A stretch of 64,000 nucleotides of DNA, from the NCBI RefSeq assembly GCF_000027125.1, contig NC_017626.1; one strand, 5' to 3'. Positions 24,621 through 25,358 of this stretch are shown piece by piece. Numbering within the stretch: the stretch's first letter is position 1; every line of letters starts with the position of its first letter. The DNA is from Escherichia coli 042 (GTDB lineage Bacteria > Pseudomonadota > Gammaproteobacteria > Enterobacterales > Enterobacteriaceae). The position numbers were made by a program, and so were the translations under genes. Under the pieces are notes generated by a model. That model saw only the letters and a program-made list of their open reading frames with translations, had not been told where the DNA came from and did no database searches.

Positions 24621-24758
24621 GTTATTAACCCTCTGTTATATGCCTTTATTTGCTTTTTTATGCCACTGCATACTGATTAACCCTCATTAATCAGTCGGCA
24701 AGTCCATTCTCCCCAAAAATGCAGAATAATCCAACACGAATATGATACTAAAACTTTT

Positions 24759-24799
24759 AAGATGTTTCATTTATCGCTATAGATGTTTCAAAATGTAAA
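24759..24799. promoter_or_regulatory. OmpR binding sites of ompC/micF divergent control region
   Basis: Minus-strand TTTACATTTTGAAACATCTA (24780..24799) and adjacent related repeat AAGATGTTTCATTTATCGC, matching OmpR site pattern upstream of ompC. Confidence 0.6.
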
Positions 24800-24954
24800 T
24801 GCAAGGGAACTTTTTAAGATTATTGCGGAATGGCGAAATAAGCACCTAACATCAAGCAATAATAATTCAAGGTTAAAATCAATAACTTATTCTTAAGTAT
24901 TTGACAGCACTGAATGTCAAAACAAAACCTTCACTCGCAACTAGAATAACTCCC

Positions 24955-25047
24955 GCTATCATCATTAACTTTATTTATTACCGTCATTCATTTCTGAATG
25001 TCTGTTTACCCCTATTTCAACCGGATGCCTCGCATCCGGTTTTTTTT
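24955..25047 (+). ncRNA. micF: MicF antisense sRNA (represses ompF)
   Basis: Sequence GCTATCATCATTAACTTTATTTATTACCGTCATTCATTTCTGAATGTCTGTTTACCCCTATTTCAACCGGATGCCTCGCATCCGGTTTTTTTT recognised as micF; ends with terminator hairpin plus T-run; TAGAAT -10 box 7 bp upstream; divergent from ompC. Confidence 0.85.
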
Positions 25048-25358
25048 ACCCTTCTTTACACACTTTTCATTATTCTGTGCTACCACAGAAAAACTATAAC
25101 GCTTGTTAACTATTTCACAAATAATTAACATCAGCATAATTTCCAGCAATCTTCGTTTATTTGCAATTAATTTCGTTGGGCTTTTTGTAGGTTATTTGTA
25201 CAGCAAAATGGCGCTTGTACATCTATTTCCCCCAATGCAGGATGATAAATATCACGGGAGAATAGAGAATCATCAATCAGGTAAGAGTCTGGAATTTCAC
25301 ACTGTACCCTTTATACTGCCCTATCACTTCGCGAAGTTTTAACAGGTCATAAACACGA

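Follow-up and report, generated by a model that had tools for sequence, protein, structure and literature searches.

OmpR control of ompC and ompF is a textbook two-component circuit, and no antisense regulatory RNA encoded on a chromosome had been described before MicF, whose gene lies beside ompC. It is likewise textbook knowledge that OmpR activates micF through the C1-C3 sites of the ompC promoter themselves. The ompC gene is well known to be hypervariable. The other genes of the circuit, ompF and envZ/ompR, sit elsewhere on the chromosome in K-12, outside the neighbourhood of ompC.

Several described systems serve as points of reference for the locus reported here: the K-12 ompC promoter, whose OmpR sites are identical in our strain and which phosphorylated OmpR (OmpR-P) has been shown to bind and activate (in vitro transcription, PMC5175337); the transcription start sites of K-12, each tabulated with the 51 nt ending at the start (Kim et al. 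2012, supplementary file 2; PMC3415461); the micF promoter of Klebsiella, which has a class II RamA site of the form CACT-7N-AAA near -41 (PMC8811837); and the rcsDB genes of Salmonella, whose transcription begins at -36 and at -157 and for which a region responding to SirA extends from -270 to -220 (PMC7241856). OmpR-P, the co-induction of micF, the repression of ompF by MicF, the regulators MarA, SoxS and Rob, and the small RNAs MicC and RybB are discussed in the literature (PMC5175337, PMC2787020, PMC8811837).

The locus analysed here lies in a stretch of 64,000 nucleotides of Escherichia coli 042 (contig NC_017626.1; hereafter the window). Positions 24621-25358 make up the whole intergenic spacer between ompC and rcsD, 738 bp bounded exactly by the two start codons. 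Judged from its sequence, this is almost certainly the standard, intact ompC-micF-rcsD control region of E. coli, and we found no sequence feature that contradicts such a reading. The locus is already known and there is nothing new in its control region. The genes that define it and its surroundings are the following:

21209-22273: an open reading frame of 354 aa beyond apbE, with the position and size of ada
22347-23402: apbE, beyond ompC, above the cut-off of the NCBIfam ApbE model
23514-24620, minus strand: the ompC coding sequence, an open reading frame of 368 aa including the signal peptide (NCBIfam NF007841, 'porin OmpC')
24955-25047, plus strand: the micF small RNA gene, 93 nt (Rfam RF00033 and alignment to K-12 b4439)
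25048-25358, plus strand: the micF-rcsD spacer, 311 bp from the end of micF to the rcsD ATG at 25359
25359-28031, plus strand: the rcsD coding sequence, 890 aa (NCBIfam NF007907, 'phosphotransferase RcsD', 1569.6 bits)
28048-28698: rcsB, downstream of rcsD, above the cut-off of the NCBIfam RcsB model

The porin gene is assigned to ompC by a match of its product to NF007841 that scores 763.2 bits against a cut-off of 484 and covers the profile from 1 to 368 of 368 positions; this assignment beats the OmpF model (493.7 bits, cut-off 583) and the PhoE model (463.4 bits, cut-off 599), both of which stay below threshold. The small RNA gene is situated between ompC and rcsD and is transcribed divergently from ompC, a layout identical to that of K-12, and the gene order agrees with the MG1655 annotation: ftp/apbE, ompC, micF, rcsD, rcsB and rcsC. 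A first-pass annotation made from the letters alone had described a complete ompC-micF divergent module here. The ends that it gave to the module, 24621 and 25358, prove to be the first and last intergenic bases exactly, and the divergence is borne out by the full-length porin match at 23514-24620 on the minus strand and by micF on the plus strand.

The identity of micF was examined with covariance models, by alignment and by folding. Rfam release 15 was searched over positions 20000-30000, with a permissive rerun at E <= 1 over 24400-25600. The MicF family (RF00033), whose model sums up conservation across genera, is found on the plus strand at 24954-25047 along the entire model (1-94 of 94), with 116.8 bits (gathering score 79) and E = 1.5e-18; the permissive rerun returned no RNA family other than MicF in 24400-25600. 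Alignment to K-12 b4439 gives 92 identical positions out of 93. The sole change is a C at 25036 where K-12 has T: it belongs to the 3' half of the terminator stem, it forms a G-C pair in place of the G.U pair of K-12, and it is the base of the Rfam consensus. The allele of the window is in fact the majority allele, being found without mismatch in 3231 of the 5374 E. coli records with a match. The gene occupies precisely the range that the first-pass annotation had given it, the covariance search which that annotation had proposed as a check is strongly positive, and the divergence from the reference is one base in 93, as opposed to a mismatch beyond a few substitutions.

Both helices of the RF00033 model are present in this MicF; one pair of the first hairpin is flagged as non-canonical, and the same bases occur in K-12. 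The gene ends in an intrinsic terminator, which the first-pass annotation had also recognised:

25019-25028 and 25032-25041, plus strand: the two arms of the micF terminator, a perfect 10-bp inverted repeat with a 3-nt loop, followed by a run of T

Six pairs of the stem are G-C, and two independent scans, one calling terminators and the other searching for repeats, agree on it. The minimum-free-energy fold of MicF leaves nucleotides 1-25 unpaired, followed by a small internal hairpin and the 10-bp terminator hairpin; its energy of -21.4 kcal/mol compares with -7.95 +/- 2.48 kcal/mol for shuffled sequences (z = -5.4), none of 200 shuffles being as good. PGAP-based RefSeq annotations that we inspected for other E. 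coli strains carry no feature under micF, while the curated K-12 record has it. An automated annotation of the window would probably miss the gene.

For the pairing of MicF with its classical target we used the K-12 ompF leader from -40 to +20, ompF not being among the genes identified in the window. The duplex of MicF nucleotides 1-33 with the K-12 ompF mRNA extends from about -16 to +11, reaching codon 4, with an energy of -27.1 kcal/mol, and takes in both the start codon and the Shine-Dalgarno sequence. When the MicF segment is shuffled, energies of -10.9 +/- 2.8 kcal/mol result, and not one shuffle in 1000 is as good. These first 33 nucleotides are the predicted ompF-pairing region. The same calculation with full-length MicF yields -39.4 kcal/mol against -34.7 +/- 4.5 kcal/mol for shuffles, a comparison of no value, since the method takes no account of structure within each molecule.

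The promoters of the region were placed by transfer of the K-12 start sites. A generic sigma-70 scan of 24500-25500 gave 2 sites where shuffles lead one to expect 3.0, and it called none of the three mapped promoters, so that the promoter assignments rest on K-12 starts carried over by exact identity. The published 51-mers for the ompC, micF and rcsD starts are all three found without mismatch in the window (PMC3415461). On the ompC side these and the associated elements are:

24621-24699, minus strand: the 5' untranslated leader of ompC, 79 nt from the mapped start to the ATG
24620-24652, minus strand: the RybB pairing site, an exact match to the target string of Kim et al., supplementary file 7 (PMC3415461)
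24634-24660, minus strand: the MicC pairing site, an exact match to the target string of the same file (PMC3415461)
24699, minus strand: the ompC start site, by exact 51-mer match (PMC3415461)
24706-24711, minus strand: the -10 element of ompC P1, GAGAAT, a positional assignment read at the expected distance from the start
24729-24734, minus strand: the -35 element of ompC P1, TTGGAT, likewise positional, with a 17-bp spacer to the -10
24739-24758, minus strand: putative OmpR site C3, -40 to -59, an exact match to the 20-mer attributed to it
24759-24778, minus strand: putative OmpR site C2, -60 to -79, an exact match to the 20-mer attributed to it
24780-24799, minus strand: OmpR site C1, -81 to -100 from the ompC start, contained in the published C1 oligonucleotide

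The hexamers would constitute a weak core promoter for ompC, just downstream of the OmpR sites C1-C3. The published 36-nt OmpR C1 oligonucleotide (PMC2586830) is present without mismatch at 24773-24808 on the minus strand. A direct repeat, AGATGTTTCA, occurs twice, at 24760-24769 and at 24781-24790, the two copies lying 21 bp, or about two helical turns, apart. The 20-mers for C1, C2 and C3 are those attributed to the ompC promoter (Harlocker et al. 1995); all three are exact in the window and tile contiguously over 24739-24799, and it is C1 that the literature search backs. The predicted sites thus form three tandem 20-bp OmpR sites from -40 to -100 in the classical arrangement. The OmpR-type direct repeats that the first-pass annotation had put between ompC and micF correspond to the AGATGTTTCA pair and to the C1 oligonucleotide. 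Position 24801 (ompC -102), the second base upstream of C1, is tri-allelic among six sequences: the window shares G with K-12, MEI003 and 1190 have A, and ST2747 and O157:H7 TR01 have T.

The start site of micF is 256 bp from that of ompC, and its promoter has the following elements:

24904-24922, plus strand: a marbox of the MarA/SoxS/Rob (RamA) type, ACAGCACTGAATGTCAAAA, with 1 mismatch to the 19-nt consensus, overlapping the micF -35
24919-24924, plus strand: the -35 position of micF, AAAACA, a non-consensus sequence with no recognisable hexamer
24942-24947, plus strand: the -10 element of micF, TAGAAT, a good hexamer and a positional assignment read at the expected distance from the start
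24955, plus strand: the micF start site, by exact 51-mer match (PMC3415461), coinciding with the annotated start of the gene

A non-consensus -35 is what one expects of an activator-dependent promoter. The ACAGCACTGAATGTCAAAA element has its centre at -42 relative to the start of micF and includes at 24908-24921 a CACT-7N-AAA element like that of the Klebsiella RamA site (PMC8811837). Scanning the window with the marbox consensus gives 3 matches against 1.36 expected, a number that is not significant by itself; what makes the micF marbox credible is its position at about -41 and its agreement with the literature, rather than the consensus scan. We therefore regard 24904-24922 as a credible candidate for the class II MarA/SoxS/Rob box of the micF promoter.

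Beyond micF the spacer leads to rcsD, and its two assigned elements stand near the distal end:

25312-25317, plus strand: the -10 element of rcsD, TATACT, with a weak sequence, CTGGAA, at the -35 position; both are positional assignments
25323, plus strand: the rcsD start site, by exact 51-mer match, 36 nt upstream of the ATG (PMC3415461)

The rcsD gene (rcsDB) is accordingly predicted to be transcribed from at least one promoter, that with its start at 25323. It had been anticipated that about 310 bp ahead of rcsD would hold its promoter; the spacer measures 311 bp and does contain the mapped start. The rcsDB sites of Salmonella all fall within the equivalent spacer and so lend further support to a promoter in these 311 bp. 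Kim et al. 2012 (PMC3415461) also list a K-12 start within rcsD, 482 nt ahead of the start codon of rcsB, in agreement with the separate internal rcsB promoter of Salmonella (PMC7241856). By arithmetic alone, this start would correspond to about position 27566 of the window.

The control region was further compared with K-12 and with E. coli at large. It differs from K-12 by five substitutions: 25036, in the terminator stem of micF, and 25133, 25154, 25170 and 25174, upstream of rcsD. Of 5426 complete genomes of E. coli, 5376 carry the region, always on the chromosome, so that an intact module is to be expected in another genome of the species; at least 99% identity to the window is found in 4797 of the 5376 matching records. 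None of the 5426 complete genomes has the same 738-bp haplotype in full, the best match being 99.9% identical. Each allele taken singly nonetheless recurs in one or more of the five strains compared: the G at 24801 is that of K-12 and the others are shared with MEI003. The 60-bp stretch 25125-25184 is polymorphic in the species, with 1557 records identical to the window, 2351 carrying 1-3 mismatches and 1466 carrying 4-6; the version in the window is a common haplotype, exact in 29% of records, and K-12 carries another. The statement of the first-pass annotation that there is nothing unexpected here fits a near-reference locus with so few changes.

The ompC coding sequence, a divergent allele, presents another picture from its flanks. 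It is 92.6% identical to K-12 at the nucleotide level with 27 gap columns, the substitutions and indels being arranged in blocks, while the surroundings are near K-12: 99.1% identity in the apbE-ompC spacer, 99.3% in the intergenic region and 98.8% in rcsD, whose product has 885 identical columns out of 891 aligned (890 residues and the stop codon). The amino-acid differences of OmpC from K-12 cluster in a few blocks, which we take to be surface loops. At the DNA level the gene is 100% identical to the WP_000865595.1 genes of strains 1190 and ST2747, and only 31 of 5430 E. coli records have an allele at least 99% identical to it.

Elsewhere in the window, naRNA4 (RF02564) exceeds the Rfam threshold at 28708-28784, 28822-28898 and 58999-59069, matches that represent REP/BIME-type palindromic repeats; the first two of them are located between the convergent genes rcsB and rcsC, and one of these two matches on both strands. 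Apart from MicF, these REP-type matches are the only ones that Rfam yields in the whole window. They are probably ordinary REP elements and not a dedicated RNA gene.

Two other readings of the region were weighed against that of a standard control region. One is that the micF-rcsD spacer hides an additional element, a small protein or a second small RNA, beside the rcsD promoter. Three open reading frames lie in or overlap the spacer (25103-25342 on the plus strand, 79 aa; 24901-25128 on the plus strand, 75 aa; 25012-25149 on the minus strand, 45 aa), but all three have a TTG start and one of them overlaps micF; there is also an imperfect 10-bp inverted repeat at 25070-25093. A hidden second RNA family was considered for the spacer and rejected on the permissive Rfam search, in which MicF alone appeared. 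The K-12 RefSeq record has no annotated feature between micF and rcsD, the rows retrieved from Kim et al. (PMC3415461) contain no further start in the interval between micF and that of rcsD, and the spacer is AT-rich DNA of promoter type. Neither the Rfam search nor the K-12 annotation thus offers any sign of an extra gene or RNA, and we consider its presence to be improbable in the extreme.

The other reading starts from the substitutions themselves: those at -226 to -185 from the rcsD ATG, or the base at 24801, might alter the expression of rcsDB or of ompC/micF relative to K-12, so that the control of the module in this lineage would depart from that of K-12. It is true that four of the five substitutions are packed into 42 bp of the micF-rcsD spacer, at -226, -205, -189 and -185, in a stretch of 60 bp for which E. 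coli has several haplotypes, and the base at 24801 has three alleles among the six sequences, the window included. Furthermore, the segment from -270 to -220 is needed in Salmonella for the activation of rcsD by SirA (PMC7241856), and 25133 is at -226 when counted from the ATG of the window. The alleles in question are, however, common natural variants: those at 25154, 25170 and 25174 are shared by all four of the other non-K-12 strains, O157:H7 included, and that at 25133 by three of the four. The mapped start sites, the -10 hexamers, the OmpR sites and the marbox are all free of differences from K-12. We know of no regulator site in E. coli at 25133, 25154, 25170, 25174 or 24801. A regulatory difference of this kind is consequently very unlikely, and just as little weight can be given to the related proposal that the mixture of a K-12-type G at 24801 with non-K-12 bases upstream of rcsD, or the segment from -226 to -185, tunes the Rcs phosphorelay or porin expression in a lineage-specific manner.

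With the standard reading of the region, the behaviour of the locus would follow that of K-12. At high osmolarity, phosphorylated OmpR would fill C1-C3, turning on ompC and raising the transcription of micF; the unstructured 5' end of MicF, of about 33 nt, would then, together with Hfq, base-pair over the start codon and ribosome-binding site of the ompF message and block its translation, such that OmpF would fall as OmpC rises. MarA, SoxS and Rob might also induce micF under antibiotic or oxidative stress, as they do in K-12, and MicC and RybB may repress ompC through its leader. The binding of OmpR-P and the activation of ompC in 042 are expected from the identity of the promoter with that of K-12, and the expression of MicF and its Hfq-dependent repression of OmpF by analogy with what is established for that strain. 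The first-pass annotation had gone further and seen confirmation of an intact osmoregulatory porin switch. This holds, by sequence, for the ompC-micF half; it does not extend to the switch as a whole, since ompF and envZ/ompR are absent among the genes identified in the window. As a known, near-reference locus the region matters little in itself, and its practical use is that of an annotation anchor: the coordinates worked out for micF, for the starts of the three genes and for the binding sites of the regulators can be carried straight over to the window.

Set beside Salmonella enterica (PMC7241856), the region shares the rcsDB start 36 nt upstream of the rcsD ATG, which is also the distance in K-12, and the K-12 flank of this start is exact here. 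The start at -157 and the SirA-dependent element from -270 to -220 are reported for Salmonella, whereas E. coli counterparts were not found in the literature retrieved. In K-12 MG1655 (NC_000913.3, 2312750-2313487) the order and orientation of the genes are the same, the spacer is again of 738 bp, and 733 of its 738 bases are identical with no indels; nor is there any difference in the targets of MicC and RybB, in the OmpR C1 oligonucleotide or in the flanks of the starts of ompC, micF and rcsD.
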